Part shown: positions 17,628 to 38,280 of the stretch, one piece after another
Layout: each line of letters begins with the position of its first letter
Position numbering within the stretch: position 1 is the first letter of the stretch
Assembly: GCA_963708025.1 (NCBI GenBank)
Contig: CAVPSB010000030.1
Coordinates: forward strand, 32,001-96,000
Length of the DNA stretch: 64,000 bases
Direction of reading: 5' to 3'
Source of the DNA: an uncultured Candidatus Rokubacteria bacterium
Lineage (GTDB): Bacteria > Methylomirabilota > Methylomirabilia > Rokubacteriales > DASRDR01
Made by a program: the position numbers and the translations under genes
The notes under the pieces: generated by a model
Told to the model about the DNA's origin: nothing
Databases searched by the model: none
The model's input: only the letters and a program-made list of their open reading frames with translations

Positions 17628-17633
17628 CGACGC

Positions 17634-20644: not shown

Positions 20645-20683
20645 CCGACGCGTCATCAAACCGCAACACGCCCGGTCTAAGGT
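20630..20683 (+). promoter_or_regulatory. Pho-box array and -10 overlapping the ppk1 stop
   Basis: GTCAC-N6-GTAAC-N6-GTCAT-N6-GCAAC-N10-TAAGGT. Confidence 0.75.
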
Positions 20684-20692: not shown

Positions 20693-20911
20693 ATGACCAC
20701 GGTCGGGCAGTCGCTGCAGCAGCTCGTCCTGTTCGGGCTCTTCGTCCTCGTCTTCCTGGGCTCGACCCAGCTCTTCCTCGCCTACCGCTGGCGGCGGGCG
20801 CTCGACCGGGACGAGGCGCGGGCATACGTCCCCCACGCCGACCCGTGGCTGCCGGCCCTGCTGACCCTGATCGGGGCCGGCTGGACCCTCCTGCTGTACG
20901 TCCTCCGCTAG
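20693..20911 (+). CDS. Small two-TM membrane protein
   Basis: 72 aa with two hydrophobic segments, directly after the Pho-type promoter. Confidence 0.7.
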   Translation: MTTVGQSLQQLVLFGLFVLVFLGSTQLFLAYRWRRALDRDEARAYVPHADPWLPALLTLIGAGWTLLLYVLR

Positions 20912-21108: not shown

Positions 21109-21153
21109 GTAACAGTTTCGTAACTGGAAACCGCTCGTCCGGGCTCCTACACT
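21109..21153 (+). promoter_or_regulatory. Pho-box-like pair and -10 for the fez-like operon
   Basis: GTAAC-agtttc-GTAAC, 23 nt, TACACT; same layout at 44571-44614 and 53311-53356. Confidence 0.65.
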
Positions 21154-21248
21154 GACCGCGAGTGCCGTGCGCGACGCCGCCGGAGTCGCCGTTCGGCGGC
21201 ACGCGCATCCGATCGGATCACCACATCGCATGTCGGAGGGCTTCCCAG

Positions 21249-21548
21249 ATGGGGTTTCATCCTCTGTCTTTCTTTCTCGGTCTCGGTGCGGCCGCCGCGA
21301 TGCCGCTGCTGACTCGCGTGTTCCGTCCCGCCGCGGTCCAGATCGCGGTGGCCGGCATGGGCGTGTTCGACGAGGTCCGTCGGGTCCTCGCCGAGCAATT
21401 CGAGGCCATGGAAGACATCGCCGCCGAGGCACGGGCCAAGCGTGAAGAGAGCCTGGCCGAGGCCGCGATGGAACCGTCGAACGGCTCAGAGGCCGAGGCG
21501 GCGGTCGGACGCCCGAGTCGGCGGCCCCGGAGGCAGCGGACCGCATAG
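21249..21548 (+). CDS. DUF5132-like / FezA-like small protein
   Basis: RBS GGAGGG; hydrophobic FFLGLGAAAAMPLL, RPAAV, then helical EAMEDIAAEARA. Confidence 0.75.
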   Translation: MGFHPLSFFLGLGAAAAMPLLTRVFRPAAVQIAVAGMGVFDEVRRVLAEQFEAMEDIAAEARAKREESLAEAAMEPSNGSEAEAAVGRPSRRPRRQRTA

Positions 21549-21550
21549 CC

Positions 21551-22051
21551 GTGGCGACCCTCCAGGTCGCCCACGACATTCCCGGGAGACTCCGCCTCCG
21601 CCTGCGCGCGGCCGTCGAGGGGGACAGCCTGGCGGCGGCGATGCGCGAGCATCCCGGCGTGACGGACTGCGTGTGGGCGGCCCGCACCGGGAGCCTGCTC
21701 CTCCACTACCGTCCGCAGGTGACGAGCGGGACGCTCCTCCGCGACGCCGTGGCGGCCCGAACCGGTCTGTCGCCGGCCGGCCCGGACGGCGCACCGGCGA
21801 CCAGCGCCCGGAACGGCGAGCCGCCCCAGCTGGCCACTGCCATCACCCAGGGCATGACCGACCTGAACGCTCAGGTGACGCAGGTGACGGGTGGCGCGCT
21901 CGATCTCCGCACGCTCCTGCCGCTCGCGCTGGGGGCATGGGCGCTCGCCGAGATCTTCCGGGGGCGGGCCGGACCGATGGCCTGGTCAACGGCCCTCTGG
22001 TACGCCCATGGCCTGTTCCGCGACTACAACCTGCCCGGCGGCGAGCGGTAG
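21551..22051 (+). CDS. HMA2-domain membrane protein (FezC-like)
   Basis: HDIPGRLRLR...RTGSLLLHY, C-terminal DLRTLLPLALG...WSTALWYA. Confidence 0.8.
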   Translation: MATLQVAHDIPGRLRLRLRAAVEGDSLAAAMREHPGVTDCVWAARTGSLLLHYRPQVTSGTLLRDAVAARTGLSPAGPDGAPATSARNGEPPQLATAITQGMTDLNAQVTQVTGGALDLRTLLPLALGAWALAEIFRGRAGPMAWSTALWYAHGLFRDYNLPGGER

Positions 22052-22055
22052 CGCC

Positions 22056-24189
22056 GTGACGGGCCGGGTCGCCCACTCGGTCCGGGGTCGGCTCCGGCTC
22101 CGGTATCCGCCCGATTGGCTGCGGCCGCGCCAGGCCGCGATCGAGGGCGAGCTGGCCCGCGTCCCCGGGGTGCGTGGGGTCACCGCGAGCGGCGTCACGG
22201 GCAGCGTCGTGGTCAGATACGACCCGGCCCGCACCGCCGAGCAGGTCCTGGTCAACACGCTGTCCGCGATGCACGGGGGATCCCCCCCCGCCGCGCCGAC
22301 CTCGAACGGAAGGCACACGGTCACGGCGGCCGTCGGGACTCACGCCGCCCCTGCTCCCGTTCCTGGCCGCCAGCGGCATGTTCGCGGCGACCTTCCTGCC
22401 GCTCCCTGGCCCTGTCCTGGCGGGACTCACCCTCGGCTCGGGCTGGCCACTCATCCGGCGCGCGGGGCGAACCCTGGCGCGGGACGGTCGCCTCAACGTC
22501 GAGGTGCTCGACGCGGCGACGCTCGTCGTGCTCGCCATCCGCGGCAACTACCGCGCGGCCGCCCTGCTCGTGTGGCTCCTGTCGGCCGGCCAGTACGTCC
22601 TGGACAGCACCGTCGTCCGGATCCGCCGGTCCATCCGCGACCTCCTGGCTTCCCCGGCCGATCCGGTCTGGCGCGAAGACGGCGGAGAGCGCACGCAGGT
22701 CCCGATCGGCGCGGTCCAGGCGGGCGACACGATCGTGCTGGCCACGGGAGAGCGGGTCCCGGTGGACGGCACCGTCGTCCACGGCGAGGCGCTGATCGAC
22801 CAGCAGCGGGTCACGGGGGAGGGTCTGCCGGTCGAGCGGGTGGCCGGTGACCGCGTGTACGCCTCGACGATGGTCGAGGACGGCGAGATCGCCGTCCGAG
22901 TCGAGCGGGTCGGCATGGAGACCTCCGTCGGCCGGATCATCGAGGCGGTCGAAGGGGCGGAAGGCGAGAAGCCCGAGCTCCAGCTCTTCGCCGAGGAGCT
23001 GGCCGACCGGCTGGTGCTGCAGACGGTCGGCCTGGCGGCGCTGGCATCCGCGGCGACACGGAGCCTCGATACCGGGATCGCCATCCTCGTCGCCGACTAC
23101 GGAACACCCGTGCGGGTCGCGATTCCCACTGCCGCCATGGCGGCGCGGATCCGCGCCGCGCGCGCCGGCATCCTGTTGAAGGGGCCCGGCGTCCTCGAGC
23201 GGCTGGCCCGGGTCAACACGGTCGTCTTCGACAAGACGGGAACCCTCACCCTCGGCGCGCCACAGGTCACCCGCGTGGCGAGCTACGACCCCGCGCTCGA
23301 TCCGGACGAGATCGTCCGCCTGGCGGCCGCCGCCGAGCGGGGATTCCGGCATCCGGTGGCCCGAGCCATCGTGCGGCTCGCCACCGAGCGGCGACTGCCC
23401 GTCCCCCGGCGGACGGAGACCGAGCTCCGGATGGGTCTCGGCGTCGGCGTCCGGGCCGACGGCCGCCACGTCCTCGTGGGCAGCCGGCGCTTCATGGAGT
23501 CGCACGGCGTCCGGCTGGACCGGGCGGCGGATGACGAGGCGGCCAGCCACCGGGATGGCGGCGCCCCGACCTTCGTCGCGGTGGACGGCCAGCTGGCCGG
23601 GCTCCTCCGGCTGCAGGACGAGCTGCGGCCCGAGGCGCCGGACGCCGTGCTCGCGCTCCGGGCCCGCCGGATGCGGAACGTGATCATGGTCTCCGGCGAC
23701 CACGCCGAGCCGACGCGGGTCATCGCCGAGTCCCTCGGCGTCCGGCACTACTACCCGGACCTCCTCCCCGACGAGAAGGCCGAGCTCATCCGGAAGCTTC
23801 GCGCCGAGGGTCGGGTCGTCGCGATGGTGGGCGACGGCGTGAACGACGCCCTGGCCCTCCACCAGGCCGACGTCGGGATCGCCGTGCCGGGAGGCGCCGA
23901 GGTCGTGGCCGAGGCGGCCGGCGTCGTCCTCCTGGGGGGCGGCCTGGACAAGGTCGTCCAGGGTCTCGACATCGCCCGGGAGACCATGGTCGTGTTCCGG
24001 CGGGTCGTGGACGTCGCAGCCCAGGTGAATCTCGGCGTGATCGGCCTGGCGTCGGTGGGCCTGGCGGGCCCGGTCACCTCGATCCTCCTGAGCAACGGAG
24101 CGGTCGTCGGGGTGGCGCTCTACACGCTGATTGGAGCCCCGTCCGTGGGCAATGCCGGGCCGGACCGGGCCCGGGCGGGGTCACGGTGA
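22056..24189 (+). CDS. P1B-type ATPase, P1B-6/FezB-like, with HMA2 N-terminus; +1 frameshift near the C8 tract at 22282-22289
   Basis: HSVRGRLRLR...TGSVVVRYD in one frame; VTGEGLP, ADYGTPVRVAIP, DKTGT, HPVA, GDGVND in the next frame; removing one C joins them. Confidence 0.85.
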
Positions 24190-24233
24190 CGTCAACTATT
24201 CGTCATCGTCCCGTCACGCCTATCCCTTATCCT
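24180..24233 (+). promoter_or_regulatory. Strong Pho-box array and -10
   Basis: GTCAC-N6-GTCAA-N6-GTCAT-N6-GTCAC-N10-TATCCT. Confidence 0.8.
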
Positions 24234-24276
24234 GTCGTGCAGGAAGGATACCCTTGGCAAAGGGGGGCCTGCCTGT

Positions 24277-24429
24277 ATGATTGCGCAGCTGCTGATGGGC
24301 TTCGTCACGGACGTGCTCTTCGGCTGGGTCTCGTCGGGCGGCCGGTCGTTCCAGGCCGAGGTCACGCAGTACATGGAGCGCCGGGGTCTCGTCAACCCGC
24401 GGGAGGTGAAGAAGAGCACCACCCGGTAG
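24277..24429 (+). CDS. Unlisted 50-aa protein
   Basis: MIAQLLMGFVTDVLFGWVSSGGRSFQAEVTQYMERRGLVNPREVKKSTTR*; G-rich RBS, GC3-rich codons, promoter immediately upstream. Confidence 0.7.
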   Translation: MIAQLLMGFVTDVLFGWVSSGGRSFQAEVTQYMERRGLVNPREVKKSTTR

Positions 24430-24495
24430 TCCTCGGCCCCGCCCCTCGCCCGCCCTCGCCGTAAGCCAGGCTGAGTCGCCTCGCCTCAGCATCGC

Positions 24496-27490
24496 ATGTC
24501 CGCCCCATCTCCTGTCCGACCCGCCGGAGGCACCGCCCCGGTGACAGCTCTCTGCGTCGCCGTCCCCGGGCGCGCCCGGCTCCGTGTCGAACGGGTTGCG
24601 AAACGGGAGTGCGGTCGCCCGGCAGCTCGAGACTCGCCTCCATGGTCATCAGGCGATTGCCGCCGTTCAGGCGAACCCGCTCACCGGCAACCTGCTCGTC
24701 CTGTTCGACCCGGCCCGGCTGACCGTGCGGGAGCTGATCGCCGAGGTCGTGCGATCCCGGGCTCCGGCGCGTCGCCGCCGCAACGGGCGAGGCGGCCGCG
24801 TCACGGCCCCGCGGTCGGCGCCGCCCGACGGGCCGGCGTGGCATGCCCTGCCCGCCCGCGCGGTCGTCAGGGAGCTGGAGGTCGCCCCCGACACCGGCCT
24901 GTCGGGCGTCGAGGCGGAGCGGCGGCTGGCCACGGTGGGACCGAACCGCCTGCCGGCGCCCGAGCCCCGGTCGGCGCTGGCCACGCTGTGGGACCAGGTG
25001 GCCTCGCTGCCGGTCGGGCTCCTCGCCGGAGCCGCGGCGCTCTCCCTCGCCGGCGGCGCCGTGTTCGACGCCCTCGTCATCCTGGGCGTGGTCGGGATCA
25101 ACGCGGCGGTCGGCTACGTCACCGAGCGCCGGGTGGATCGCATCCTCGGCGGCCTGCGGAATGCGACGGTGCCGACGGCGCTCGTCCGCCGCGATGGGAA
25201 GGAGACCTTCCTGCCGGCGGCGGCCCTCGTCCCCGGCGACGTCGTCGTCCTCCAGGCCGGCTACGACGTGCCCGCCGACGGTCGCGTGATCGCGGCCGAC
25301 CGGCTCGCGCTCGACGAATCGGCGCTGACCGGTGAGAGCCTGCCGGTGCCGAAGGCGGCCGGCACGGTCTACGCCCCGGAGACACTCCTCGCCGACCGGG
25401 CGAACATGGTCTACTCGGGCACCAGTGTCGCCGAGGGCTCGGGCCTGGCTCTCGTCACCGGCACCGGCGTCGCCACCGAGATGGGACGCATCCGCCAGCT
25501 CATCGCCGCGGCGGTGGCGCCTCCGACTCCACTCGAGCGCGAGCTGGACCGGATGGGCCGCCGGCTGGTCGGCCTCTGCCTCGGGCTTTCCAGCGTCGCG
25601 CTGGGGCTCGGGCTGCTCCGGGGTGTGGCGGCCCTCGAGATGCTGCGGACCTCGATCTCCCTCGCGGTGGCGGCGGTGCCCGAGGGCCTGCCGGCCGTCG
25701 CGACCACCACCCTGGCGCTCGGCATGCAGCGCATGCTGCGCCGCAACGCGCTCATCCGGCGTCTCTCCGCCGTGGAGAGCCTCGGCGCCACGACCGTCAT
25801 CTGCGTCGACAAGACGGGCACGCTCACCGAGAACCGGATGAGCGTGCACGCCTGGCACCTGGGCGGGAGCGATCTCGTCGTGAACGGCCGCGCGGCCGAG
25901 CTGTCCGACCCGCGACTCCGCTGGGCGCACATGATCGGCGTGCTGTGCAACGAGGCGGACCTGACCCGGCAGCAGGGCGGAGGCTGGGAGGTGAACGGCA
26001 GCGGCACCGAGGGCGCGCTGCTGGCCGCCGCCCGGCAAGCGGGGCTCGACTACCGGCGCCTGCGGGAGGATCACCCGCTGGTGAGCCTGCGCCCTCGGCT
26101 CGCGGACGAGAACTGGATGGCGACGGTTCACGAGGCCGGGCCCGGTCGCCGGCTGATGATGGTCAAGGGGGCACCGGAGGAGGTCGTGCGGCTCTGCGCC
26201 CGACGCCTCGACGGGGCCACCGCGCCGGGCCTGGACGACGACGCCCGGCGCAGCATCCTGGAGGCGAACGCCGCCCTGGCGAACCAGGGCATGCGCGTGC
26301 TCGGGCTCGCGTTCAAGGAGATCCCGGCCGCGGCGAGCCCGAGCTACGACGACCTCGCGTGGGTCGGGCTGGTCGGACTCCGGGATCCGATTCGCGAGGG
26401 CGTGCGCGAGGCGATCGCGGCCTGCCAGCGGGCGGGCATCCGCACCATCATGATCACCGGCGACCAGAGCCTCACCGCCCTGGCCGTTGCCCGCGAGCTC
26501 GACCTCGTGCGCAACGGACAGATGCGGGTGGTGGAGGCCTCGCAGCTCGGCGGGGCGTCGGAGGCCGCCGTGCGGAATTTCGCGCGGGACGTGGCGGTCT
26601 TCGCCCGCGTCTCGCCGGCCCACAAGTACCAGATCGTCCGGGCGCTCCAGGCCGAGGGCGAGATCGTCGCCATGACCGGTGACGGCATCAACGACGCGCC
26701 CGCCCTGAAGGCAGCCGACATCGGGGTGGCGATGGGCGCCCGGGGGACCCAGGTCGCCCGGGACCTGGCCGACGTCGTGCTGCTCGACGACAATTTCGGC
26801 TCCATCGTCGGCGCCGTGGAGCAGGGCCGGACGATCCACGCCAACGTCGGCAAGGCGCTCCGCTTCCTCCTGGCGACCAACTTCAGCGAGATCCTGGTGA
26901 CCATCGGCGCGCTGGCGCTCGGGATCGCCCGTCCGCTGACGGCCATCCAGCTCCTCTGGATCAACCTGCTCTCCGACGTGGTGCCGGCGCTGGCGCTCGC
27001 CGTGGAGCCGGCGGAGCCCGACATCATGGCGCGGCCGCCCCGGGATCCGGCGGCGCCGGTCCTGTCCGGGGATGCCCTCCTCCGGATCGCCGGCGACGGC
27101 GCGCTGCTCTCGGCCACGACGCTCGGCGCGTACGGCGCGGCACTGGCCCGCCACGGCGCGGGCCCTCAGGCCGCCAGCGTGGCGTTCGCCACCCTGGCCT
27201 CGGGCCAGCTCCTGTACGCGCTCACCTGCCGCTCCGAGCACCGGCCCGCGGTCACGGGCCTCCATCGGAGCCCCGCGCTGCTCGGTGCGGTGGGCGGCAC
27301 CGTGGCCCTCCAGGTCGCCGCGGTCGCCGTCCCGTCGCTGCGACGTCTCTTGGGGATCGCGCCCCTCGGACCGGGTGATTGGGGCCTGGTGGCGGCCGGG
27401 GCGGCGCTTCCGCTCCTGGTGACGGAGGTAACCAAGGCGCTCCGCGCCCGGCCGGTGTTGACCGCCGAGCCGACGAGAAGGAGGCGATGA
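24496..27490 (+). CDS. P2A (Ca2+-type) P-type ATPase with HMA2 N-terminus, copy 1; +1 frameshift at about 24591
   Basis: AVPGRARLRVE|GLRNG...ANPLTGNLLVLFD, TGES, AVPEGLP, DKTGT, KGAPE, GDGIND, LATNFSE, WINLLSD. Confidence 0.9.
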
Positions 27491-28096
27491 ATGGCGACCA
27501 AGCGAGAGGACCAGTCGCGGGAGACCACGCAGGACGGCGGCGCGATGCACCGCGCCATCCGCGGCACCATCACCGGCAGCGAGATCATCTCGGTGGGGGT
27601 GCTCAACCTGGTGCGGAGCACGCTCGTGACCGCGCTGTCCGGCGCCCGGGACGTCGGAAGCGAGGTGGGGATCACCGCGGTGGCGACCGTCCGCGGGACC
27701 ATCAAAGCCGCCCACGAGATCGGCGGCGACCTCGGCATGGTGGCCCAGTCCGCCGCTCGCGGCGCGGTCCGGGCCGCCCAGGAGGTTGGCGGCGACGTAG
27801 CCGGCGCGGCCCGCCGGGCAGTCGAGGGCACGATCGAGGCAGCGCGCGAGATCGGCGGCGACGTGGTCGGCGCGGCCCGCAAGGCCGCCGAGGGCGCGAT
27901 CGACGCCGCCGACCGGATCGGCTCGGCCACCGGCCGAGCAGTGCGACGGACGGTCGGCGTGGCGGTGCGGCAGGCCCGGGGGGTCAGGCCCGCCCGGGCG
28001 ACGCGAAAGCAGGCGCTCCGCGCGCGGCCGGTGCGACTCCGCCGCCCCGGGCGCCCGCGGCCGAAGGGCGGTGGGAGGGGGGCGAGGGCAGAATAG
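27491..28096 (+). CDS. 22-aa Ala/Gly helical-repeat protein with Arg-rich tail, copy 1
   Basis: RBS AGGAGG; five repeats of xAAxE(I/V)GGD(L/V)xxAAxxAxxG(T/A)(I/V); paralogs at 30991(-) and 44321(-). Confidence 0.85.
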   Translation: MATKREDQSRETTQDGGAMHRAIRGTITGSEIISVGVLNLVRSTLVTALSGARDVGSEVGITAVATVRGTIKAAHEIGGDLGMVAQSAARGAVRAAQEVGGDVAGAARRAVEGTIEAAREIGGDVVGAARKAAEGAIDAADRIGSATGRAVRRTVGVAVRQARGVRPARATRKQALRARPVRLRRPGRPRPKGGGRGARAE

Positions 28097-28101
28097 GGCC
28101 G

Positions 28102-28230
28102 CTAGCCGGACTCGAAGCCGTTGCGCAGAGGGGTGGACATGTCGGTCACCCCCCACACGTTGCCATGCCGGTAGAAGGCGAGGTTCTCGACGGCGGGGAA
28201 GCCCGCCCCACCCTCCGAGCCGGCCTCGCC
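28102..28230 (-). pseudogene. phoX: Internal fragment of PhoX-type alkaline phosphatase
   Basis: Manual translation GEAGSEGGAGFPAVENLAFYRHGNVWGVTDMST resembles the PhoX GF-x2-DNL-x-FD-x2-GNLW-x2-TD blade. Confidence 0.6.
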
Positions 28231-28253
28231 GCGCCCGACCGGTAACCGCCTCG

Positions 28254-28557
28254 CTACCCGAGGCGGCGGGCGGCTCGTTTCAGCGCCTCGACCCGGTCCT
28301 CACGCTCCCGCGGCACGTCGAGATCGGTTGGTCCGAAAAGGCCGTAGGCCGCCAGCCGCGCGTAGAAGCTCGTCGGAGTAGCCGATGTCGCGGATGGACC
28401 CGCCGCGCCGAGGACCGCCACGACGAGCGCGCTGGCGAGGCCCGCCCCGTGCCCGCCCGGGAGAGCGTCACCCGCGGCATCGCCGCCGGATCCGACCGGG
28501 CCGACGATCCGCCTGCCGCCGGGCAACGTCCACTCCGGGACCGTCATCCGGTTCTCG
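28254..28557 (-). pseudogene. Deleted duplicate of the ATPase2-metK operon (three joined fragments)
   Basis: 28254-28370 matches 31027-31143; 28370-28409 matches about 32007-32045; 28410-28557 matches 33783-33930. Confidence 0.85.
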
Positions 28558-28737
28558 CCCGCCGTTGGCCACTCGCTCGAGGATACCCGCGAATGGTCGG
28601 GCAGGCGCTCGACCGCGAAGCGGAGCGGGCATGGCCGCGCAATAGAAGCGGCCGTTCGGCACGTGACTCCCTCTCGAGCGCGACAGGGGCAGTCCGGCGA
28701 CAAGGGGCGACCGCTGGCGCGTCCGCGCAGTCGAGAT

Positions 28738-28780
28738 GTCGTGTCAACGTCATCAACCCGTGACGTCCCCCGCGTAGGGT
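28738..28780 (+). promoter_or_regulatory. Pho-box array and -10 for the phosphatase gene
   Basis: GTCGT-N6-GTCAT-N6-GTGAC-N10-TAGGGT. Confidence 0.7.
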
Positions 28781-28876
28781 TCCCTCCGGTGCTGTGCGGA
28801 CCGGTCCGCGCGGGCCGTCCACCCACAAGTCCGAGCCGCCGCCGTCCGGTGCGGCGCGAAGCCGGAGGTTCACGCC

Positions 28877-30628
28877 ATGGCGTCCACCGTCCGCCCACTG
28901 CTCCACGCCCTCCTCGCTGCTGTTGTACCCCGGCGGCTCTGCGCGGTCTTGCTGGTCCTGGCCGGCGTAGTGCTCGCCGGGGTGGCCCCGGCAGCCCCGC
29001 GGGTCATCGTCATCTCGCTCGACGGCGCCACCCCGCGCTTCGTGGACGACTACCTGGCCCGGGGGGTGCTCGAGCGGGACAGGGGACTCGGCCTCCTCAG
29101 GCGGCACGGCATCACCGCGCGGCAGAACGTGACGATCAACCCCTCGCTGACCGCGCCCGGCCACATCGCCATCGCCACCGGCTCCATCGCCGCTCACAAC
29201 GATATCGCCGCCAATACCTTCCACCTGCAGGCCAGCCCGTTCACGGCGACCATCAGCGGGTTCTCGGCTCCGATCGGCGGCTACGACATTCACGGGCCAG
29301 CGGAGGCGGCCGAGATCACGGCGGAGCCCTTGTGGCTGCCGCTGCGGGCGGCCGGCAAGGTGGTGGCGACCGCCACCTTCCCCGGCGGCGATGGCCTCGA
29401 CATCCGTGTGCCCGGACGCTCACCGAGCCCGATCGTCCAGCCGGCCGCCGAGCGCACCGTGGACTACACGGTTCCCTTCGGTGCGTTCGCCGGCGTCGGA
29501 GCCCAGGGCTTCAGTCTGACCGCGGCCGACTTCTCGGTCGCTCCCAGTTCGACCACCGGCCAGCTCGCCGCCGCCGGTCGGACGTCCTTCAGCCCGACAC
29601 TCCAGAAGGTGACCCCCCTCGAGACATTCACGGTGGGCGGCGTGAGCTACCAGATCCAGGTGGCGGCACTCGACACGACGAATGACGGCCTGGTCAACTA
29701 TGACATGCTGGTGTTCTTCGATACGGCTCACGGGATCCCGCCCGGCCCCTTCAACCCTCCGTCCACCGGACCGGCCTACGTCCGCCCGGCGGACAAGCGC
29801 TCGGGCCCCTTCTACCTGGAGGGCAGCAGCACCAGAGCGGGCACGGGCTTCTACGTGAGCCGGCTCGAGCCCGACCTTTCCAGCGTGCGGATCGCCCGGT
29901 ACTCTGCCAACGCCATCCCCCGCAACGCCGCCGTCCTCGGCGACGTGGACGACGTCAACAACCACGCCGGATTCTGGGCGCCCCAGCCCGACTTCCGGAT
30001 CCCCGAGCGACTGAGCCCGGGTTTCGATCCCTTTCCCGACCTCGAGTTGGAAGCGATCTACCAGGATCTCGTGCGACTGTTCGTGGACTACCAGACCCGG
30101 GTGGGGCTTCGGGCCATCGAACGCTTTCCCGACGCCGACCTGATCATGATCTACATCGAGCAGCCGGACGGATCGGGCCACCAGTTCCTGCTGACCGATC
30201 CCCGCCAGCCCACCGACCCCCGCAACCCGGACTCGATCGGCGGCGGGCAGGACCCGGACAAGGTGGCTCGCTACGCCCGCTACCACGAGGCCGCCTACCG
30301 GGCGGCCAGCACCGCCGTGCAGCGGATCATCGAGGCGGTCGGCACCGATCGCCACGGCATGCCGAGGAGCAACATCATCGTCGTCTCCGACCACGGCTTC
30401 GAGATCTTTCACACTGCGGTCAGCATGATGAACCTGCTCGTCAGCCGCGGCTTCGACCCGACCAAAGTCCGGGCGGTGACATCGGGTCCGGCTGTCAACG
30501 TCTACGTCAACCTGATCGGACGCGGCCCGAGCGGTACCGTGACCCCAGCCGAATACCTGGTCCTCCAGGGCCAGATCGCCGACGCGCTGGCGGAGCTCGT
30601 GGACACCAACCCGAATTACACCAACGGC
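28877..30628 (+). pseudogene. Secreted alkaline phosphatase/nucleotide pyrophosphatase-family protein, 3' truncated (ORF reads on to 31120 as antisense)
   Basis: ISLDGA, PSLTAPGH (Thr nucleophile), QPDGSGH, VSDHG; after DTNPNYTNG the sequence becomes the antisense of the repeat gene. Confidence 0.8.
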
Positions 30629-30991
30629 CTCGACCGCCGTCGCCACCGCGGCCTTGCTCGCCGTCCGGGCAACCTCCGCGAGGTCGCCGCCCACCTCCTG
30701 GGCTGCCTGGATGGTGCCTTGCACGGCATGCTTCGCGGCGAGTCCGACGTCACCTCCGATCTCGGACGTCGCCCGGATGATGCCGCGCACCGCCGTGATC
30801 CCGACCGTCGCCACGAGGCCTCCCAGTTCGGCCACGCCCGACAGGCTCGTGAGCAGGCTGTTCCGGGCCAGGTGGATCACACCGGCGGCGACGATCTCCG
30901 CGCCGCTGATCGATCGTTGGAGGGCCGAGGATCCGTTGTCGGCTTCGCTCGATGGTCGGGGTCGCGTTCCGGTCCTCCGCTTCGTGGTCAT
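30626..30991 (-). pseudogene. 22-aa helical-repeat protein, copy 2, 3' truncated
   Basis: MTTKRR...GAEIVAAGVIHLARNSL...EIGGDVGLAAKHAVQGTIQAAQEVGGDL; no own stop, runs into the phosphatase antisense. Confidence 0.8.
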
Positions 30992-31026
30992 GATGCGTCC
31001 CCTGTCTCGGATCCTTCCGCCCAAGG

Positions 31027-32250
31027 TTACCCGAGGCGGCGGGCGGCTCGTTTCAGCGCCTCGACCCGGTCCTCACGCTCCCACGGCACGTCGAGATCGG
31101 TTCGTCCGAAGTGGCCGTAGGCTGCCAGCCGCGCGTAGAAGCTGCCTTCGTGCCGGATGGGCAGCTGGCGCAGGCCGAGGTGGTGGACCACCGCCGCCGG
31201 CCGCAGGTCGATGGTCTCCTGCAGGACGCGCGCGAGGTCGGTGTCGGACGCCACGCCGGACCCGTACGTCTCGACCGACACGGCGAGCGGCCGGGCCTGG
31301 CCGATCGCGTAGGCCAGGTGCACCTCGCACTCCCGGGCCAGCTCGGCGGCGACGAGGGTCCGGGCCGCGTAGCGGGCGACGTACGCCCCGAGGCGATCGA
31401 TGTGATCCGGGTTCTTCCCGGACAGCGCGCCGCCGCCGTGTCGCGTGTATCCCCCGTAGGTGTCCACCATGTTCTTCCGGCCGGTGAGCCCCGCATCCCG
31501 ACGGGGGCCTCCGACGAGAAAGGCGCCGCCGGGGTTGACGAAGAGCCGGGCCTCGGCGTCGAAGCTCAGCTCGGTGCGATCCAGGGCCGGACGCAGGACC
31601 GCGTCCCGGATGTCGCCCTCGAGCCGGCGCCGGGTGGCGGTGGACGTGCCCGGCGCGCCGACCGCGGTCGTGTGCTGGACATTGATCACGACCGTGTGAA
31701 TCCGCACGGGACGCCGATCCTCGAACTGCACGGCCACCTGGACCTTGCCGTCCGGCCCCAGGTACGGCACGGCCTTCTCGCGCCGCGCCTGATCGAGCCG
31801 CCGGGCCAGCCGATGGGCCAGGGCGATGGGCGCCGGCATCCGCTCGGGTGTGTGCGTGCACGCATACCCGAAGACGGACGCCTGGTCCGAGGCCACGCCG
31901 GCGTCGAGCTCCTCCTCCGTCGACTCGACGTCGGGAGCCGGATCGCGGCCGGGACGGTGGGCGAAGTTGGTGATGACGCTCGCGTTCTCGGGGTCGAAGC
32001 CCTGCTCGTCGGAGTAACCGATGTCGCGGATGACCTGCCGCGCCACGCCGGCCGGGTCCACGCTCACCGCCGAGGCCGCCGTGACCGCCAGGAACACGAG
32101 CCCCGTGGCCACGGCACATTCGGCGGAGACCCGGGCTTCCGGGTCGAGATAGAGGAACGCGTCGATCACGGCGTCGGAGATCTGGTCGCACATCTTGTCG
32201 GGGTGCCCCTGGGTGACCGACTCCGAGGTGAAGACGCTCGTCTTGCTCAC
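31027..32250 (-). CDS. metK: Divergent methionine adenosyltransferase (MetK paralog)
   Basis: FTSESVTQGHPDK, DGKVQV, DAGLTGRK, HGGGALSGK, YGHFGR, PWE; coupled to ATPase2 by a GTGA overlap. Confidence 0.88.
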   Translation of the reverse strand: MSKTSVFTSESVTQGHPDKMCDQISDAVIDAFLYLDPEARVSAECAVATGLVFLAVTAASAVSVDPAGVARQVIRDIGYSDEQGFDPENASVITNFAHRPGRDPAPDVESTEEELDAGVASDQASVFGYACTHTPERMPAPIALAHRLARRLDQARREKAVPYLGPDGKVQVAVQFEDRRPVRIHTVVINVQHTTAVGAPGTSTATRRRLEGDIRDAVLRPALDRTELSFDAEARLFVNPGGAFLVGGPRRDAGLTGRKNMVDTYGGYTRHGGGALSGKNPDHIDRLGAYVARYAARTLVAAELARECEVHLAYAIGQARPLAVSVETYGSGVASDTDLARVLQETIDLRPAAVVHHLGLRQLPIRHEGSFYARLAAYGHFGRTDLDVPWEREDRVEALKRAARRLG

Positions 32251-35240
32251 GGGCCTGGCCTCCTTCCGGCGTCGCCCGGCGCGGGCCGGGACTTGAGCAT
32301 CTCTCGCGCGAGCAGCGGGGCCACCGCGCCCGCCGCGACGACCCCCCAGGCGCCGGCGCCGAGGGGGGACGTGCCGAGTAGCCGGCGGAGCGCCGGCACC
32401 GTGACGGCCCCGACCTGAAGCGCCAGCGTCCCCGCAAGCGCCCCGATCAGGGGCGGGTTCTGCGAAAGGCCGCTCAGCGCCGGGCGCGTCTCGGACCGAC
32501 ACGCCAGCGCGTACAGGAGCTGGGCGGTGGTCAGGGTGACGAACGGCACGGTGGAGCCGGCCGCGCCCGGCCGGCCACCGGCGATCGCGTGCGCTCCGAG
32601 GGCCGAGGCGGTCATCACGGCCGCGTCCACGGCGATCCGCCGCATGTCCGCGGTCGAGAGAAGCGGCTCGTCGCGTGGCCCGGGGGCTCGCCGCATCACG
32701 TCCGGCTCGGCCGGCTCCATCGCGAGCGCGAGAGCCGGGAACACGTCGGACAGGAGGTTCATCCACAGCAGCTGCACCGCGGTCAAGGGTCGGGCGATGC
32801 CCAGGGCCATGCCGACGACCGTGAGTAGCACCTCGCCGAGGTTGGTGGCGAGCAGGAAGCGCACGGCCTTCCGGACGTTGGCGCGGATCGTGCGGCCCTG
32901 CTCCACCGCGCCCACGATCGAGCCGATGTTGTCGTCCAGCAGGACGACGTCGGCCAGGTCCCGGGCCAGTTCCGTCCCGCCCACCCCGATGGCGACGCCG
33001 ACGTCCGCCGCGCGGAGGGCGGGTCCATCGTTGATCCCGTCACCGGTCATCGCCACCACCTCGTCGTCCGCCTGCAGGGTCTGGACGATGCGGTACTTGT
33101 CGGCGGGCGACACCCGGGCGAAGATGTCCACCTCCCGCGCCAGCCCCCGGAGGGCTTCCGGCGGGAGCTGGGCGATCTGCGCCGCCTCGGCCACCCGCAG
33201 CTCCCCGTTCCGGTCGAGGCCGAGCGCCCGCCCGACGGCGATCGCGGTGGGGCTCTGGTCGCCGGTCAGCATGACGACCCGGATGCCGGCCGCCCGGCAG
33301 GCGTTCAGGGCCTCCCGCACGCCGGGTCGGATCGGGTCCACCATCCCGACCAGACCCGCCCAGACGAGCTGGTCGATCGCGGGCGGCTCGGCTGCCATCC
33401 CGTCGTCGTCGCGATAGGCCAGGCCGAGGACCCGGAGGGCGTCGCTGGCCATGCGGGCATTGGTGCCGAGGATCGCCCGGCGGTCGCTCGCGGTCAGCAC
33501 CCGCGAGTCGCCGTTCCGGCCAGCAACGTGGCTGGCGAGTCGCAGGACCTCCTCCGGCGCCCCCTTGACCGCGATAAGCCGATGGCCGTTATCGGTCGAG
33601 TGCACCGTCGCCATCCAGTTCTGGCCGACGGCCCTGGGCCGGACCCCGATCCGCGGGTGGCGGGCTCGCAGCGCCCGGCCATCCACGCCGAGGGCGCGGG
33701 CGGACTCCAGGAGGGCGACCTCGGTCCCGCTGCCCAGGATCGTGCCGCCCTCGGCCTCCGCGACGAGCTCGGCCTCGTTGCAGAGGACCGCCACGACGAG
33801 CGCGCTGGCGAGGCCCGCCCGGTGCCCGCCCGGGAGAGGGTCACCCGCGGCATTGCCGCCGGATACGACCGGGCCCACGATCCGCGTGCCGCCGGGCAGC
33901 CTCCACTCCTGGACCGTCATCCGGTTCTCGGTGATCGTGCCCGTCTTGTCGACGCAGATGACCGTCGTCGCTCCGAGGCTCTCGACGACCTCGAGCCGCC
34001 GGACGAGCACGTTCCGCCTGAGCATCCGCTGCATCCCGAGGGCGAAGGTCGTCGTCGCGACGGCGGGCAGACCTTCCGGCACGGCGGCGACGCCGAGGGC
34101 GATGGCCGTTCTCACCATCTCCAGCGCGGAGATGCCGCGCAGCAGGCCAAGCCCGAGGACGGCGGCGCAGAGCGAGACCGTGATCCCGACGAGGGTCCGG
34201 CCCATCCGGTCGAGCTGCCGCTCGATCGGCGCCGGTGGTGGCTCGACCCCGGCGACCAGGGCGCGCACCCGGCCGAATTCCGTGCGACTCCCGGTCCCGG
34301 TCACGACCGCGAGGCCAGCGCCCTCGCTGACCACGGTTCCGGCGTAGACCATGTTGGCCCGGTCGGCGAGCGGGGTGCCTTCGGCGTGGACGTGGTCAGC
34401 CCGCTTGGCCACCGGCAGGCCTTCCCCGGTCAGAGCGGACTCGTTGACGCTCAGCCCGCCCGTCACATCCACCAGGCGGCCGTCGGCGCCGACGTCGTGT
34501 CCCGCCCTGAGGATCAGGACGTCCCCAGGCACCAGCGAGGCCGTGGAGACGGTGCGCTCGCGACCATCACGCCGAACCAGCGCCACCGGGTGCGTCAGGC
34601 GCTGCAGGGAGCTGAGGATGCCCTCGACGCGGCTCTCGGTCGCGTATCCGACCAGCGCGTTGGCGGCGACGACACCGAGAATCACGATCGCCTCGAAGGG
34701 GGCTCCGCTCACCAGGGACAGGCCGGCGGCGCCGGCCAGGAGCGCCACCGGCAGGGAGGTGACCTGTCCGGCCAGGATCGCAAGGCCCGAGCGAGGAGTC
34801 GGGGCGGGGACACGATTCGAACCGAACCGCGCGAGCCGGGCCTCGGCCTCCTCGCCGGTCAGGCCGACGGACGGCAGCGTGGCCAGGCGCGCCACGACGT
34901 CGGCGGCCGTCGTGGCATGCCAGCGGTCGCCGTCGCGCTCGAGTATCTCGTGATCTCCCCCGCGGGTCGGCGGTCGCGACCGCCGCCGCGGCGGCCCCCC
35001 GTCGCGATAGCGACGCAGCTCGGCCGCGACCTGGCGGGGGCTGAGGGCCTCGGCGTCGAAGAGCACGAGGACGCTGCCGGTCAGCGGGTTGGCGTGAACT
35101 TCGCGGATGCCGACCCGGATCGCCAGCCGGTCAACGATGCGCCGCGCGACGTCGGGACGGTGGCGCAGACCCTCGACCCGGGCGCGGATTCGTCCACGCA
35201 CGGCGACCGAGAGGAAGATCACAGATGGCTGGGCCGTCAT
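32247..35240 (-). CDS. P2A (Ca2+-type) P-type ATPase with HMA2 N-terminus, copy 2
   Basis: AVRGRIRARVEGL...ANPLTGSVLVLFD, TGEGLP, AVPEGLP, DKTGT, KGAPE, GDGIND, LATNLGE, WMNLLSD. Confidence 0.93.
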   Translation of the reverse strand: MTAQPSVIFLSVAVRGRIRARVEGLRHRPDVARRIVDRLAIRVGIREVHANPLTGSVLVLFDAEALSPRQVAAELRRYRDGGPPRRRSRPPTRGGDHEILERDGDRWHATTAADVVARLATLPSVGLTGEEAEARLARFGSNRVPAPTPRSGLAILAGQVTSLPVALLAGAAGLSLVSGAPFEAIVILGVVAANALVGYATESRVEGILSSLQRLTHPVALVRRDGRERTVSTASLVPGDVLILRAGHDVGADGRLVDVTGGLSVNESALTGEGLPVAKRADHVHAEGTPLADRANMVYAGTVVSEGAGLAVVTGTGSRTEFGRVRALVAGVEPPPAPIERQLDRMGRTLVGITVSLCAAVLGLGLLRGISALEMVRTAIALGVAAVPEGLPAVATTTFALGMQRMLRRNVLVRRLEVVESLGATTVICVDKTGTITENRMTVQEWRLPGGTRIVGPVVSGGNAAGDPLPGGHRAGLASALVVAVLCNEAELVAEAEGGTILGSGTEVALLESARALGVDGRALRARHPRIGVRPRAVGQNWMATVHSTDNGHRLIAVKGAPEEVLRLASHVAGRNGDSRVLTASDRRAILGTNARMASDALRVLGLAYRDDDGMAAEPPAIDQLVWAGLVGMVDPIRPGVREALNACRAAGIRVVMLTGDQSPTAIAVGRALGLDRNGELRVAEAAQIAQLPPEALRGLAREVDIFARVSPADKYRIVQTLQADDEVVAMTGDGINDGPALRAADVGVAIGVGGTELARDLADVVLLDDNIGSIVGAVEQGRTIRANVRKAVRFLLATNLGEVLLTVVGMALGIARPLTAVQLLWMNLLSDVFPALALAMEPAEPDVMRRAPGPRDEPLLSTADMRRIAVDAAVMTASALGAHAIAGGRPGAAGSTVPFVTLTTAQLLYALACRSETRPALSGLSQNPPLIGALAGTLALQVGAVTVPALRRLLGTSPLGAGAWGVVAAGAVAPLLAREMLKSRPAPGDAGRRPGP

Positions 35241-35271
35241 CGCTACGGGCGGCTCTGGCTCCGTCCACGAC

Positions 35272-35314
35272 ACCCTACCAGTGGTTCGTTACCATGACGC
35301 TACGACAACGTTAC
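35272..35314 (-). promoter_or_regulatory. Pho-box array and -10 for ATPase2-metK-repeat operon
   Basis: GTAAC-N6-GTAGC-N6-GTAAC-N10-TAGGGT. Confidence 0.75.
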
Positions 35315-35407
35315 GAAACCTCGAGTCCGGAGGAAGGACCAGCTTGACCTATCATGGGCCCTGGGGTGGTGCCCAGCGAGTCCTCGGTGCAGGCTCGGGA
35401 AGGATGC

Positions 35408-36817
35408 ATGAAGCGCCTGTTCGTCATCGGGCTCGGGCTCGTGGCCGTGTTGCTGGTGGCGGCGCTGGCGGCGGCGCTTGCCATCGGGCTGCCACGCAAC
35501 GCGGCCGGCATGGCCGCCCGCAGCGTGTGCTCGGGAGCCTTCGTCGCCGAACGGCCGTGGCAGAAGGTGCTGACCGAGGACGTGCTGCCGGCCAGCGGCG
35601 TGCTGCAGTTGGTCAACGTGACCGTCAACGTCGCAGCACGCACGGTGAGCGCACGCTTTGCCGGCGGCTTCGAGCGCCGCGCGTCGCATCTGGGGCGGCG
35701 CGGCTGCGTGCTCGACGCCGAGCCCGACCGCGCCGCCGCGCCGCCGACCCCGCTCGTCGCTCGCGGCGCGCCCTGGCCCCAGGGTGATTCGCCGCTGCCC
35801 CCGGCGCAATGGGGGGACGGGGTCGCCGCCGCTCGGCTGCAGGCCCTGGTGGACGAGGCCTTCGTCGGCGCCGGCGATCCCGCCGCGGCGAACGCACGCG
35901 GCCTTGCCGTCGTGCACCGCGGCCGGCTGCTCCTGTTGCGCCATGGCCACGGGTTCGACGCCACGACGCCGTTGCACGGCTGGTCGATGACCAAGACCGT
36001 GCTGGGCATGCTCACCCACAAGATCGCTGCCGAGCGGAGGCTCGCGCTCGGCCGCCCGGTGGTCGAGGCGTTCGGCCCCGGCCGCGAACCGGCCTGGGTC
36101 GCCCTCTGGCGCGCCGATGCGCGCAAGGGCATCACCGTGCAAGACCTGCTGTGGATGCGCGACGGCCTGGCCAACGTCGAGGACTACGCGCCCTGGGGCG
36201 CGGTGCCACGCCTGCTGTGGGGCGGCAAGGACGTTGCCGCCCATGCCGCGGGTGCCGAGGCCGAGGTGCCGCCGGCCACGCGCTGGCGGTATTCGAGCGC
36301 CACCTCGAACCTGCTCGCGCGAGTGCTGCGCGGCAGCTTTGCGACCGATGCCGAATACTGGGCCTATGCGAAGCAAGCCCTCTTCGACCCGATCGGCGCC
36401 GGCACCGCGGTGCTCGAGACCGACGCCGACGGCACCTGGATCGCGTCGTCATACCTGTGGGCGAGCACCGGCGACTGGGCCCGCCTGGGCCTGTTGATGC
36501 TGCAAGACGGCCGCTGGGGCGAGCGCCAGGTGCTGCCGCCCGGTTGGCTGGCGCGTGCGGCGACGCCCTCGCTCGGGAAGGGGGATGGACTTGGCTACGG
36601 CGCGCAGACCTGGCTCATCGGCCACCCGAGCGAACGCATGTGCCGTGGCCGCGGCCTGCCGCCGGATACGATGGCGATGATGGGCCACTGGGGTCAGATC
36701 GTCGCCATCGTGCCGTCCCGCCAGGTGGTGACGGTGCGCCTGGGCTGGACCCTCGACCCCGACGCGTTCCGGCCCTGCGAGTTCGTGGCCGAGGTGCTGA
36801 AGGCCGTGAAGGACTAG
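35408..36817 (+). CDS. Serine hydrolase, beta-lactamase/AmpC-like family, membrane anchored
   Basis: WSMTK (SxxK), RYSS, WARLG, GHWGQ; N-terminal TM. Confidence 0.88.
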   Translation: MKRLFVIGLGLVAVLLVAALAAALAIGLPRNAAGMAARSVCSGAFVAERPWQKVLTEDVLPASGVLQLVNVTVNVAARTVSARFAGGFERRASHLGRRGCVLDAEPDRAAAPPTPLVARGAPWPQGDSPLPPAQWGDGVAAARLQALVDEAFVGAGDPAAANARGLAVVHRGRLLLLRHGHGFDATTPLHGWSMTKTVLGMLTHKIAAERRLALGRPVVEAFGPGREPAWVALWRADARKGITVQDLLWMRDGLANVEDYAPWGAVPRLLWGGKDVAAHAAGAEAEVPPATRWRYSSATSNLLARVLRGSFATDAEYWAYAKQALFDPIGAGTAVLETDADGTWIASSYLWASTGDWARLGLLMLQDGRWGERQVLPPGWLARAATPSLGKGDGLGYGAQTWLIGHPSERMCRGRGLPPDTMAMMGHWGQIVAIVPSRQVVTVRLGWTLDPDAFRPCEFVAEVLKAVKD

Positions 36818-36870
36818 CCGCGACCGGCGATTTTCAACGGTACGCCGCCCGCACGAGCGGGCATCGCCGC

Positions 36871-36946
36871 GTAACGCTCTCGACACCCACGCGTCCAGAT
36901 CTTTTGGCGCTCCCGTCAGGCTTGCGTCACGTGACGCTGGTAGCGT
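36871..36946 (+). promoter_or_regulatory. Pho-box array and -10 for the porin remnant
   Basis: GTAAC (36871), GACAC (36882) ... GTCAG (36915), GTCAC (36926), all in 11-bp phase, then N10-TAGCGT. Confidence 0.6.
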
Positions 36947-36960
36947 CGAACCACTTGGAG

Positions 36961-38059: not shown

Positions 38060-38280
38060 TCGCTCTCGGCCTGGCGCTCGGCCTCCTGCTGACGAGCGGC
38101 CACTGAGCGGGGCCGTTCGGGTGCCCCCGAAACCGCGGCCCGACACCGCCTCGGCGTGAGGCTCCCATGCCGGTCCTGACCATCGGCACGCTCGAGGCCA
38201 TCGAGGTCCCGGCCTCACCCCAGCCGGCCGGCGGCTGGAAGCGGCCGCCCCGAAAGCGTGGGTGAAGCGGAGGCCCTGGA

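Follow-up and report, generated by a model that had tools for sequence, protein, structure and literature searches.

A conserved operon of CoBaHMA-linked cation pumps under predicted phosphate control in uncultured Rokubacteria

The window analyzed here, 64,000 nucleotides of contig CAVPSB010000030.1 (positions 32,001 to 96,000) from the genome of an uncultured Candidatus Rokubacteria bacterium (GCA_963708025.1), contains a cluster of three gene units that encode P-type ATPases together with small membrane proteins, a helical-repeat protein and a paralog of MetK. Coordinates below are those of the window unless a contig or locus is named. The gene map was built from codon-position G+C plus Pfam and NCBIfam scans (G+C of the window, 71%; genome of 8.2 Mb in 49 contigs, completeness 99.7, contamination 8.2). 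Unit 1 consists of genes for a DUF5132-like protein, a protein in which a CoBaHMA domain (Pfam HMA_2, PF19991) is joined to a helical hairpin, and a P1B-like ATPase. Unit 2 comprises a 50-residue open reading frame (ORF), a CoBaHMA-P2A ATPase and a protein of 22-residue repeats, and unit 3, on the opposite strand, combines a second CoBaHMA-P2A ATPase with the MetK paralog and a further repeat protein. The genes are closely spaced: the HMA_2 gene begins 2 nt past the stop codon of the DUF5132-like gene, the P1B start lies 4 nt past the HMA_2 stop, the ATG of the unit 2 repeat gene abuts the P2A TGA, and the GTG of the MetK paralog overlaps the TGA of the unit 3 P2A gene. An earlier note, made from the sequence alone, had reported three units led by Pho boxes after ppx and ppk1, and the domain scans recovered every gene that it named where it had placed them. 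The N-terminal sequence GRxRxR...TG(S/N)(L/V) that it had pointed out is indeed common to four proteins of the cluster. In the whole genome the HMA_2 profile finds three matches, all within the cluster, and the fourth copy is split by a frameshift. Two conclusions are well supported. The cluster is one conserved operon of uncultured soil bacteria that is duplicated and partly damaged in this genome, and its promoter sequences place it under predicted PhoB-type phosphate control.

The operon is seen in compact and intact form in another genome of the same family (G012; L013 9584-18042), where six or seven genes encode, in order, the DUF5132-like protein, the CoBaHMA-hairpin protein, the P1B ATPase (761 residues), the 50-residue ORF, the CoBaHMA-P2A ATPase (1006 residues), the MetK paralog and the repeat protein. 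A scan for the repeat protein in one genome per species gave 16 loci; the match table of L034 is that of the G012 locus (L013), and the two were counted once. The gene order is kept in nine of these 16 loci (L026, L027, L030, L034, L035, L036, L038, L039 and L040). Four others (L028, L029, L032 and L037) encode the P2A pump with the repeat protein and are cut or lack the first half of the operon, and three (L031, L033 and L041) are too short. The MetK paralog stands between pump and repeat protein in six loci and is absent from that place in six. The hosts are mostly metagenome-assembled genomes (MAGs) of Rokubacteria and Methylomirabilota, and L026 and L030 come from a Terriglobia and a Gemmatimonadales MAG, respectively. 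Across the phylum, the repeat-protein profile (E ≤ 1e-10) is found in 48 of 251 genomes, or 24 of the 104 of good quality. P1B orthologs (E ≤ 1e-120) are encoded by 21 of the 251, every one of which is among the 48 with the repeat protein; the two genes share a contig within ~6 kb in 20 of these and lie on different contigs in the remaining one, G194. The components that the earlier note had proposed as a single system do therefore co-occur elsewhere. Collectively, these data give good support to an ancestral order of DUF5132-like protein, CoBaHMA-hairpin protein, Cys-less P1B-6-like ATPase, 50-residue peptide, CoBaHMA-P2A (Ca2+/Mn2+-type) ATPase, optional MetK paralog and polybasic-tailed helical-repeat protein. 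The G012 operon has a tRNA-Gln gene directly upstream (L013 18106-18180) and is flanked by unrelated dehydrogenase genes; together with the Terriglobia and Gemmatimonadales MAGs, this suggests that the cluster moves between lineages. At some loci the operon is preceded by a second, shorter repeat gene, which in L026, L038, L039 and L040 is divergent and ~300 bp upstream of the first gene; that of L030 has the orientation of the operon.

In the window, the P1B gene changes frame near 22330-22367, such that the CoBaHMA domain is read in one frame (21975-22367) and the remainder in another, and the first P2A gene carries one extra base at ~24590, inside its CoBaHMA domain. Debris of further copies was found by tblastn on the minus strand, namely a P2A remnant at 28410-28613 (68% identity over 68 residues) and the C terminus of a MetK paralog at 28269-28370 (91% over 34 residues). 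The truncated repeat gene, rep2, meets a Phosphodiest (NPP) family gene that starts at 28877 head-on, and has neither a tail nor a stop codon of its own. These features, with further split genes (zwf/opcA in the window and a CHAD gene elsewhere), are what one would expect if the locus were a decaying or chance collection of pseudogenes and duplicated pieces that serve no common function. We consider that reading very improbable, and for the family it is largely refuted by the intact syntenic operons of many genomes. Alignment of public contigs reveals another sequence at each of the two frameshift sites in a relative of ~94% identity from run X3, which lacks the extra base at ~24590 and 7 nt at 22329-22340, so that both pumps would be in frame there. 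A gap of 1 nt within 22170-22573 is seen in a near-identical contig from run X1. At least part of the damage may thus be assembly error or recent. The larger changes, that is, the P2A and MetK fragments and the truncation of rep2, look real. The second P2A gene, the MetK paralog and the repeat genes rep1 and rep3 are intact in this genome.

The DUF5132-like protein (21249-21548, plus strand) has an N-terminal hydrophobic helix (GLGAAAA) followed by an Ala/Glu-rich helix. Its match to the Pfam DUF5132 profile (E 0.001, 19.4 bits) is under the 25-bit cut-off; among the orthologs of this small first protein, nine of nine match DUF5132 at E ≤ 1, with a best E of 6e-6. The profile of DUF1490, the PacL family, faintly matches two of the nine (E ≤ 1, best 0.0067), and the window copy is not among them. 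In the ortholog alignment the N terminus reads FLLGLGAAxxxP, with GxG and GxxxA present and a strict GxxxG absent, and no His-rich C-terminal metal-binding tail is seen. The protein appears, from these features, to be PacL/FezA-like in build. The 50-residue protein (24277-24429, plus strand), encoded upstream of the first P2A pump, also begins with a hydrophobic helix and contains LLGLLAD. Homologs are present in eight of nine loci examined, the window included (the others being L026, L027, L030, L034, L036, L038 and L039).

The CoBaHMA-hairpin protein (21551-22051, plus strand) matches PF19991 over model positions 3-152 of 154 with E 8e-13 and 49 bits. Relative to the curated cut-off of 30 bits, this protein and the second P2A pump (30.8 bits) score above, and the P1B N terminus (26.9 bits) and the first P2A pump (15 bits) below. 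The AlphaFold2 (AF2) model of the hairpin protein, with a mean predicted local distance difference test (pLDDT) score of 74 and 81-93 in the domain, displays a β0-β-α-β-β-α arrangement in which strands 3-10 and 13-18 precede helix 24-32, followed by a helical hairpin at residues 119-159. Residues H8, G12, R13 and R15 are invariant in nine orthologs, and the hallmarks of the CoBaHMA domain, a β0 strand with a conserved histidine and basic residues in β1/β2, are present. The folds nearest to the model are the HMA domain of ATP7B, the YAM domain of YajR, and KipI (E 0.002-0.02); in the paper that introduced CoBaHMA, HMA domains, YajR YAM and KipI are the named relatives. Both sequence and model thus point to a FezC-like architecture.

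The P1B-like ATPase with its N-terminal CoBaHMA domain (22056-24189, plus strand) matches TIGR01525 at 446 bits, compared with a cut-off of 346. An N-terminal G[RK]xRxR motif is found within the first 120 residues in 107 of 123 aligned rows of the family, HSVRGRLRVRYP being the commonest form. The N terminus reads H-x-x-RGRLRVR ... TGS, and DKTGT is kept in 122 of the 123. Transmembrane helix (TM) 4 reads ADYGTP in the window and ADYGQA in G012, and the 12 commonest TM4 strings, which account for 76 of the 123 rows, are all [AS]DYGx[AP]. When the family is aligned to CopA, the Y-G-x that follows the aspartate stands at the position of C-P-C. TM6 reads LSNGAV in the window and LSHGAS in G012, with S(H/N)G in the family and SHGT(T/A) commonest. 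The pump has many environmental relatives: 4932 of the 8000 candidates scored match at E ≤ 1e-20, and the best 120 are 49-99% identical. According to the ferrosome work (10.1101/2020.01.10.902569), FezB, a P1B-6 ATPase, is marked by D[Y/F]SCA in TM4 and HNxxT in TM6. The cluster pump fails both signatures, having DYGxA and S(H/N)G in their places, and so does not count as a FezB homolog when the term is used strictly; a FezB or P1B-6 identity was rejected. The R-rich N-terminal motif is present, and D-Y and the missing TM4 proline are common to this pump and FezB.

The two P2A pumps carry the Pfam domain set of P2 ATPases. Copy 1 (P2A_1; 24496-27490, plus strand) is, from 24590 onward, 59% identical to its G012 ortholog, and copy 2 (P2A_2; 32247-35273, minus strand), which is intact and has an HMA_2 match of E 3e-7, is 58% identical to copy 1. 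The closest solved relatives are SPCA1 (E 8e-146) and Listeria LMCA1 (E 1e-133). As in SPCA1, LMCA1 and SERCA, TM4 contains PEGLP and TM6 contains N..(S/T)D, which are kept in 120 and 119 of 120 homologs, respectively; unlike those pumps, the cluster P2A proteins have an N-terminal CoBaHMA domain. PF19991 is listed for many of the homologs in precomputed domain lists, and a regular-expression search finds both N-terminal motifs in 59 of the 120. The earlier note had called these pumps Ca/Mg/Mn-type, and the predicted ion-site residues bear out a Ca/Mn type. The NCBIfam score of 583 bits is under the equivalog cut-off of 798, so the ion specificity is one that we infer. Judged by DKTGT in the P1B pump and by PEGLP and N..(S/T)D in the P2A pumps, both kinds of pump are predicted to be of active type.

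The repeat protein rep1 (27491-28096, plus strand) has a basic N terminus, a hydrophobic helix, five 22-residue units in register and a polybasic tail with 14 Arg/Lys among 36 residues. In the rep2 fragment (30620-30994, minus strand) the family homology ends after ~110-125 residues, and rep3 (43737-44321, minus strand) is 69% identical to rep1 and has its own promoter. The AF2 model of rep1 is a compact helical-repeat solenoid with pLDDT > 90 over residues 81-160. The family obtained no name from Pfam, NCBIfam or the ESM Atlas, which holds it in unnamed clusters only, and its profile matches 553 cluster representatives at E ≤ 0.001 among 1.84 billion, 28 of them at E ≤ 1e-30. A Foldseek search of the PDB with rep1 returned designed helical repeats only (best E 0.012), and a wide fold search gave designed repeats at Z 16.3 and no natural chain above Z 8.2, which is noise level for helical repeats. 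A phasin identity was rejected: rep1 has no Phasin_2 match, and the sole match, that of the G012 ortholog (E 0.0057), scores 17.3 bits against a cut-off of 24.9. The "phasin-like coat" of the earlier note is hence better described as a predicted solenoid. Repeat proteins also occur away from the pumps. In the source genome a fourth paralog, 36-38% identical, lies at C2:407175-407837 (locus L022), distant from any P-type ATPase, and the longer and more distant repeat proteins of genus g5 are likewise solitary. In addition, rep3, with its Pho-box-type promoter, lies directly upstream of a gene for myo-inositol-1-phosphate synthase on the same strand (42646-44614), and a gene of the inositol-monophosphatase family follows the repeat protein in L027, L028 and L036.

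The MetK paralog (31027-32250, minus strand; 407 residues) matches TIGR01034 at 381 bits, compared with a cut-off of 309, and a normal MetK is encoded on contig C10. Like MetK, the paralog is predicted to have the full-length three-domain fold and the triphosphate and Mg motifs, retaining GHPDK, PDGK, F-x-x-GGP-x-x-D-x-GLTGRK and GK..D. Unlike MetK, it is altered in the putative methionine site: GE is replaced by V(N/T), a different and variable sequence stands in for the QS/gating loop, GAGDQG is lost, and one K of SGKDPxKVDR is changed to H. In the E. coli and human structures, the methionine-contacting residues are Glu55, Gln98 and Lys269 (E. coli numbering). The changes are seen in five of five cluster orthologs and in the commonest variants of the 120 best homologs (57-100% identical), and the protein also contains a 7-residue insert near its C terminus. 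The sequence is consistent with the earlier note's view of a triphosphate-handling enzyme without a methionine site.

Upstream of every unit are pentamers of the form GT(A/C)A(C/T) at 11-bp spacing together with a TAnnnT box. The unit 1 promoter (21109-21153, plus strand) consists of GTAAC-N6-GTAAC, 17 nt and TACACT; that of unit 2 (24191-24233, plus strand) of GTCAA/GTCAT/GTCAC in 11-bp phase, then TATCCT; and that of unit 3 (35268-35314, minus strand) of GTAAC/GTAGC/GTAAC in 11-bp phase, then TAGGGT. The rep3 promoter (44560-44614, minus strand) resembles that of unit 1, with GTAAC-N6-GTAAC ... TACACT, and these two are the window's share of the five GTAAC-N6-GTAAC occurrences in the genome. 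Both strands of the genome were scanned for three phased units with 11 of 12 informative positions, followed 2-7 nt further on by TAnnnT. This gave 11 matches in 8.2 Mb, seven in the window and four on contig C9, compared with zero, two, four and one matches genome-wide, none of them in the window, for control periods of 9, 10, 12 and 13. The seven window sites lie before a 72-residue ORF (20630-20662, plus strand; GTCAC/GTAAC/GTCAT), unit 2, the NPP gene (28738-28786, plus strand; Pho-box-type) and unit 3, and at 37647, 45777 and 48254. The four C9 sites are located before a pstS-like gene, before phoX and, in two cases, between phoX and phoD. Phased repeats ahead of the units had been noted earlier; they are far beyond chance and their motif is shared with the pstS, phoX and phoD promoters. 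The three additional window sites, at 37647 (+), 45777 (-) and 48254 (+), are full Pho-box-type sites that lie, respectively, before a 106-residue ORF, before a minus-strand ORF (44611-45672) and inside or before a phosphonate-type ABC transporter operon (47905-50865). The C9 sites belong to a second phosphate island (C9:1-16800, locus L042) with pstS-C-...-B, phoX, phoD, a phosphoenolpyruvate mutase fused to a nucleotidyltransferase, and a CHAD gene, of a family associated with polyphosphate granules, that is split into two frames.

The same promoter architecture is found at related loci. By eye, a unit-1-type promoter precedes the first gene in L026, L030, L038, L039 and L040, whereas L027 and L036 have a variant that is shorter by one helical turn; the promoters of L026 and L036 were also found by the scan. 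A unit-2-type box lies between the P1B and P2A genes in L026, L027 and L036, and the intergenic region of L026 has boxes on both strands. A two-unit scan of the 16 related loci (250,398 bases) gave eight matches, compared with zero, zero, one and one at the control periods, and six of the eight are just upstream of the first gene, of the 50-residue ORF/P2A unit, or of the divergent short repeat gene. The window itself encodes a PhoB-like response regulator (14657-15427; best family PhoB, 259 bits, below the cut-off of 296), whose own promoter contains TTTAC/GTCAA/GTAAC. A common TTTAC/TTAAC-N6-GTCA(A/C/T)-N6-GTAAC pattern is found in four regulator-pstS promoters, those of the window, L027, L040 and L024 (unpublished G038). 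It is because of this comparison of promoters, both within the genome and across genomes, that PhoB-like control is well supported. The window regulator is probably the controller, binding two or three GT(A/C)AC units 11 bp apart upstream of the -10 element. Orthologs of the regulator and of pstS also lie near the cluster in L027 and L040, the latter with phoU. A second PhoB-like regulator, a Cache-HAMP-PAS kinase, a PHO4/Pit transporter and PhoU_div recur in L027, L028 and L037, and phoX, phnH, the regulator and pstS are near the P2A-repeat pair in unpublished G038. In run X7, described as metagenomic RNA-Seq in its library text, short contigs match parts of every unit; that the run is RNA is a guess, so it provides no evidence on expression.

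The presence of the same boxes on phoX and phoD raises the question of whether the pumps serve secreted phosphatases. PhoX, PhoD and NPP enzymes depend on Ca in combination with Fe or Zn, and there are known P1B pumps that supply metal to secreted proteins, a role proposed for CtpC as well. On this view, the Pho-induced PhoX, PhoD and NPP would receive their metals in the periplasm, Ca2+ exported by the P2A pump and Fe2+ or Mn2+ by the P1B-6-like pump. The box-bearing NPP-family gene between units 2 and 3 and the P2A-repeat pair that adjoins phoX in unpublished G038 would suit this proposal, as would two pumps of different ion classes for a two-metal need. However, PhoX and PhoD are usually exported by the Tat route, in which case they would already be folded around their cofactors when they cross the membrane, and soil pore water is usually rich in Ca2+. 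Moreover, phoX adjacency is seen at one locus only, and the proposal leaves the cytoplasmic repeat protein, the CoBaHMA-hairpin protein and the MetK paralog unexplained. We regard metal supply to phosphatases as unlikely.

The surroundings of the cluster are largely concerned with phosphate. Genes for PhoU, PstC/A-like proteins, a PstS-like protein and the PhoB-like regulator occupy 8191-15427 on the minus strand (to 15700 with the regulator promoter), and are followed toward the cluster by a transglutaminase-like gene, a His-phosphatase gene, ppx (17589-18563, plus strand; Pfam Ppx-GppA, E 6e-47) and ppk1 (18497-20644, plus strand; four PPK domains, E 1e-41 to 2e-70). Between ppk1 and unit 1 is the 72-residue hydrophobic ORF (20693-20911, plus strand), which has a third-position G+C of 0.97 and no homolog in the other loci. 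The NPP-family gene (feature 28738-30700, plus strand) has a frame that is open to 31120, across the end of rep2. A beta-lactamase-family gene (35354-36817) shares a divergent promoter region with unit 3 and is followed by a fragment of a phosphate-selective porin O/P gene (36810-37472). The zwf/opcA region (38266-40967) is split over several frames, with a lone 73-residue G6PD_N piece and one ORF that joins G6PD_C to OpcA, which may reflect either assembly indels or decay. ARAGORN places a 96-nt tRNA-Pro (anticodon AGG; 41395-41490) inside an epimerase-like ORF (40910-41902), probably a false call.

The earlier note had placed the units right after ppx-ppk1. A link to polyphosphate by way of this adjacency is confined to the present genome (0 of 15 other distinct loci), and the adjacency was rejected as a trait of the family. 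The idea of Ca pumps combined with polyphosphate does have a parallel in acidocalcisomes and polyphosphate bodies, and the genome encodes Ppk1, Ppx, a proton-pumping pyrophosphatase (H+-PPase) and a CHAD protein. The H+-PPase and CHAD genes, however, are on other contigs, and the ppk adjacency is peculiar to this genome.

Comparison of the cluster with the fez clusters (Grant et al.; 10.1101/2020.01.10.902569) shows several similarities. Both are single operons that encode a P1B-type pump whose N terminus has an R-rich motif, a further HMA plus two-helix membrane protein with this R-rich motif (the hairpin at 119-159 in the AF2 model here), and small hydrophobic proteins, and in both pumps the TM4 proline that would follow D-Y is replaced. 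There are also differences. Unlike FezB, the cluster pump has a TM4 motif, DYG(T/A/Q/M/L)A, without cysteine, and S(H/N)G in TM6. Unlike the fez clusters, the operon adds a constant second pump of P2A Ca/Mn type, the helical-repeat protein and often the MetK paralog, and is under predicted phosphate rather than iron control, with no Feo, Fur or DtxR neighbors. Of the fez-type machinery that the earlier note had inferred, the R-rich CoBaHMA P1B-like pump, the FezC-like HMA-hairpin protein and the small hydrophobic proteins stand, and the FezB motifs do not. The cluster is undescribed in the literature that we searched; the work on CoBaHMA architectures (Gaschignard et al. 2024) or the supplements of ferrosome or PacL papers may already list the pump or the fusion.

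An equally similar architecture is that of the mycobacterial PacL-CtpC "effluxosome", which has been experimentally shown in the plasma membrane (PMC13043812, 10.1101/2021.10.01.462712). PacL proteins combine an N-terminal TM helix that contains GxxG with Ala/Glu repeats, CtpC is termed "P1B6-like", and DUF6110 relatives pair with P1B-6 pumps (10.1101/2021.10.01.462712). As with PacL and CtpC, CtpG or CtpV, the gene immediately preceding that of a P1B-6-like pump with an N-terminal domain specifies a small TM protein whose cytoplasmic helix is rich in Ala and Glu, and two of nine orthologs have the faint DUF1490 match. By this analogy the pumps could form an export platform, clustered in the cytoplasmic membrane and expelling divalent cations during phosphate scavenging, with Ca2+, Mg2+ and Mn2+ either freed by Ppx hydrolysis of polyphosphate or entering as metal-phosphate by Pit. 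The DUF5132-like and repeat proteins would then act like PacL, stabilizing or clustering the pumps via their N-terminal CoBaHMA domains. In some database sources the P1B homologs go under the name "manganese/zinc-transporting P-type ATPase C"; L027 has a PHO4/Pit transporter with PhoU_div close to the cluster, and ORFs homologous to these occur in L028 and L037; and ppx is beside the cluster in this genome, all of which would fit. However, the DUF1490 likeness is faint while that to DUF5132 is consistent (9/9), the small protein lacks any motif for metal binding at its C terminus, the cluster pump has no CPC, and the boxes are Pho boxes rather than operators of a metal sensor, no metal-sensing regulator being present. 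The cluster also adds a CoBaHMA-hairpin protein, which PacL operons as described in those sources lack, and a P2A pump; the export platform gives no role to the polybasic-tailed repeat protein or the MetK paralog. We therefore hold such a platform to be a serious but rather doubtful explanation.

A third relevant system is found in Microcystis, which forms intracellular amorphous Ca carbonate. Genes for DUF5132 and CoBaHMA-hairpin proteins flank ccyA and a Ca2+/H+ exchanger gene (10.1101/2024.07.07.602159, PMC8890360). As in the ccyA neighborhood, the present cluster brings together DUF5132 proteins, a CoBaHMA-plus-helical-hairpin protein and a Ca2+ transporter; unlike it, the cluster contains no calcyanin/GlyZip protein, its Ca transporter is a CoBaHMA-fused P2A ATPase, and its context is phosphate, not carbonate. 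The combination of a CoBaHMA-hairpin protein, small proteins of DUF5132/GxxxG type and a cation transporter is otherwise found only in the ferrosome operon and the calcyanin neighborhood, and a cytoplasmic scaffold with a polybasic tail fits a polyphosphate-holding body. For these two reasons we favor a vesicle. In the model that we propose, phosphate starvation would cause both pumps to clear divalent cations from the cytoplasm. The space that receives them, bounded by a membrane, would most likely be a small vesicle inside the cell that is built like a ferrosome, the cargo being Ca2+ or Mn2+ for the P2A pump and a hard cation such as Fe2+, Mn2+ or Mg2+ for the DYG-type pump. Its membrane would be shaped or marked by the FezC-like hairpin protein together with the small hydrophobic proteins. 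Polyphosphate or anionic lipid may be the anionic partner that is bound by the basic face of the CoBaHMA domains and by the repeat protein's polybasic tail, and the repeat protein would also act as a scaffold for the P2A pump. The MetK paralog might work on the end of a triphosphate or polyphosphate and not in S-adenosylmethionine synthesis. Cations and (poly)phosphate would be kept together in the body, in reserve for the next pulse of phosphate.

We put this Pho-induced, fez-like intracellular compartment for cations and (poly)phosphate at somewhat below an even chance, and that a compartment forms at all is pure analogy. Several points weigh against it. Any granule, vesicle or localization is a prediction from genes; the organisms have not been brought into culture, and the locus is in none of the runs recorded as RNA. 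The pump departs from both P1B-6 signatures, the small protein has its faint likeness to PacL, and PacL-CtpC platforms of very similar build work in the plasma membrane. No iron or carbonate genes are present in the cluster, and no ppx or ppk match is found in the 15 other distinct loci. It is also counterintuitive that a phosphate-rich body should be built during phosphate starvation. More tentative still is the fuller proposal of a new organelle, a membrane-bounded Ca/Mn-(poly)phosphate body of Rokubacteria and other soil phyla that is induced by phosphate starvation, is built by a fez-related module, uses CoBaHMA domains for docking pumps and scaffold to polyphosphate or anionic lipid, and employs the MetK paralog on triphosphate or polyphosphate ends. 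If true, this organelle would be a bacterial counterpart of the acidocalcisome.

The cluster links ferrosomes, mycobacterial effluxosomes and the calcyanin neighborhood by way of the CoBaHMA domain, the small TM/helix protein and the P1B-6-like pump, and adds to these systems a member that is under predicted phosphate control and has a Ca-type pump. It also offers a testable handle on the binding partners of CoBaHMA domains. The MetK paralogs form a widespread family that is labeled S-adenosylmethionine synthetase in databases and probably has a different activity. The predicted Pho box of Rokubacteria is itself new and can be used for reading their regulons. More broadly, the operon could show how abundant uncultured soil bacteria couple the handling of cations to scarcity of phosphorus.

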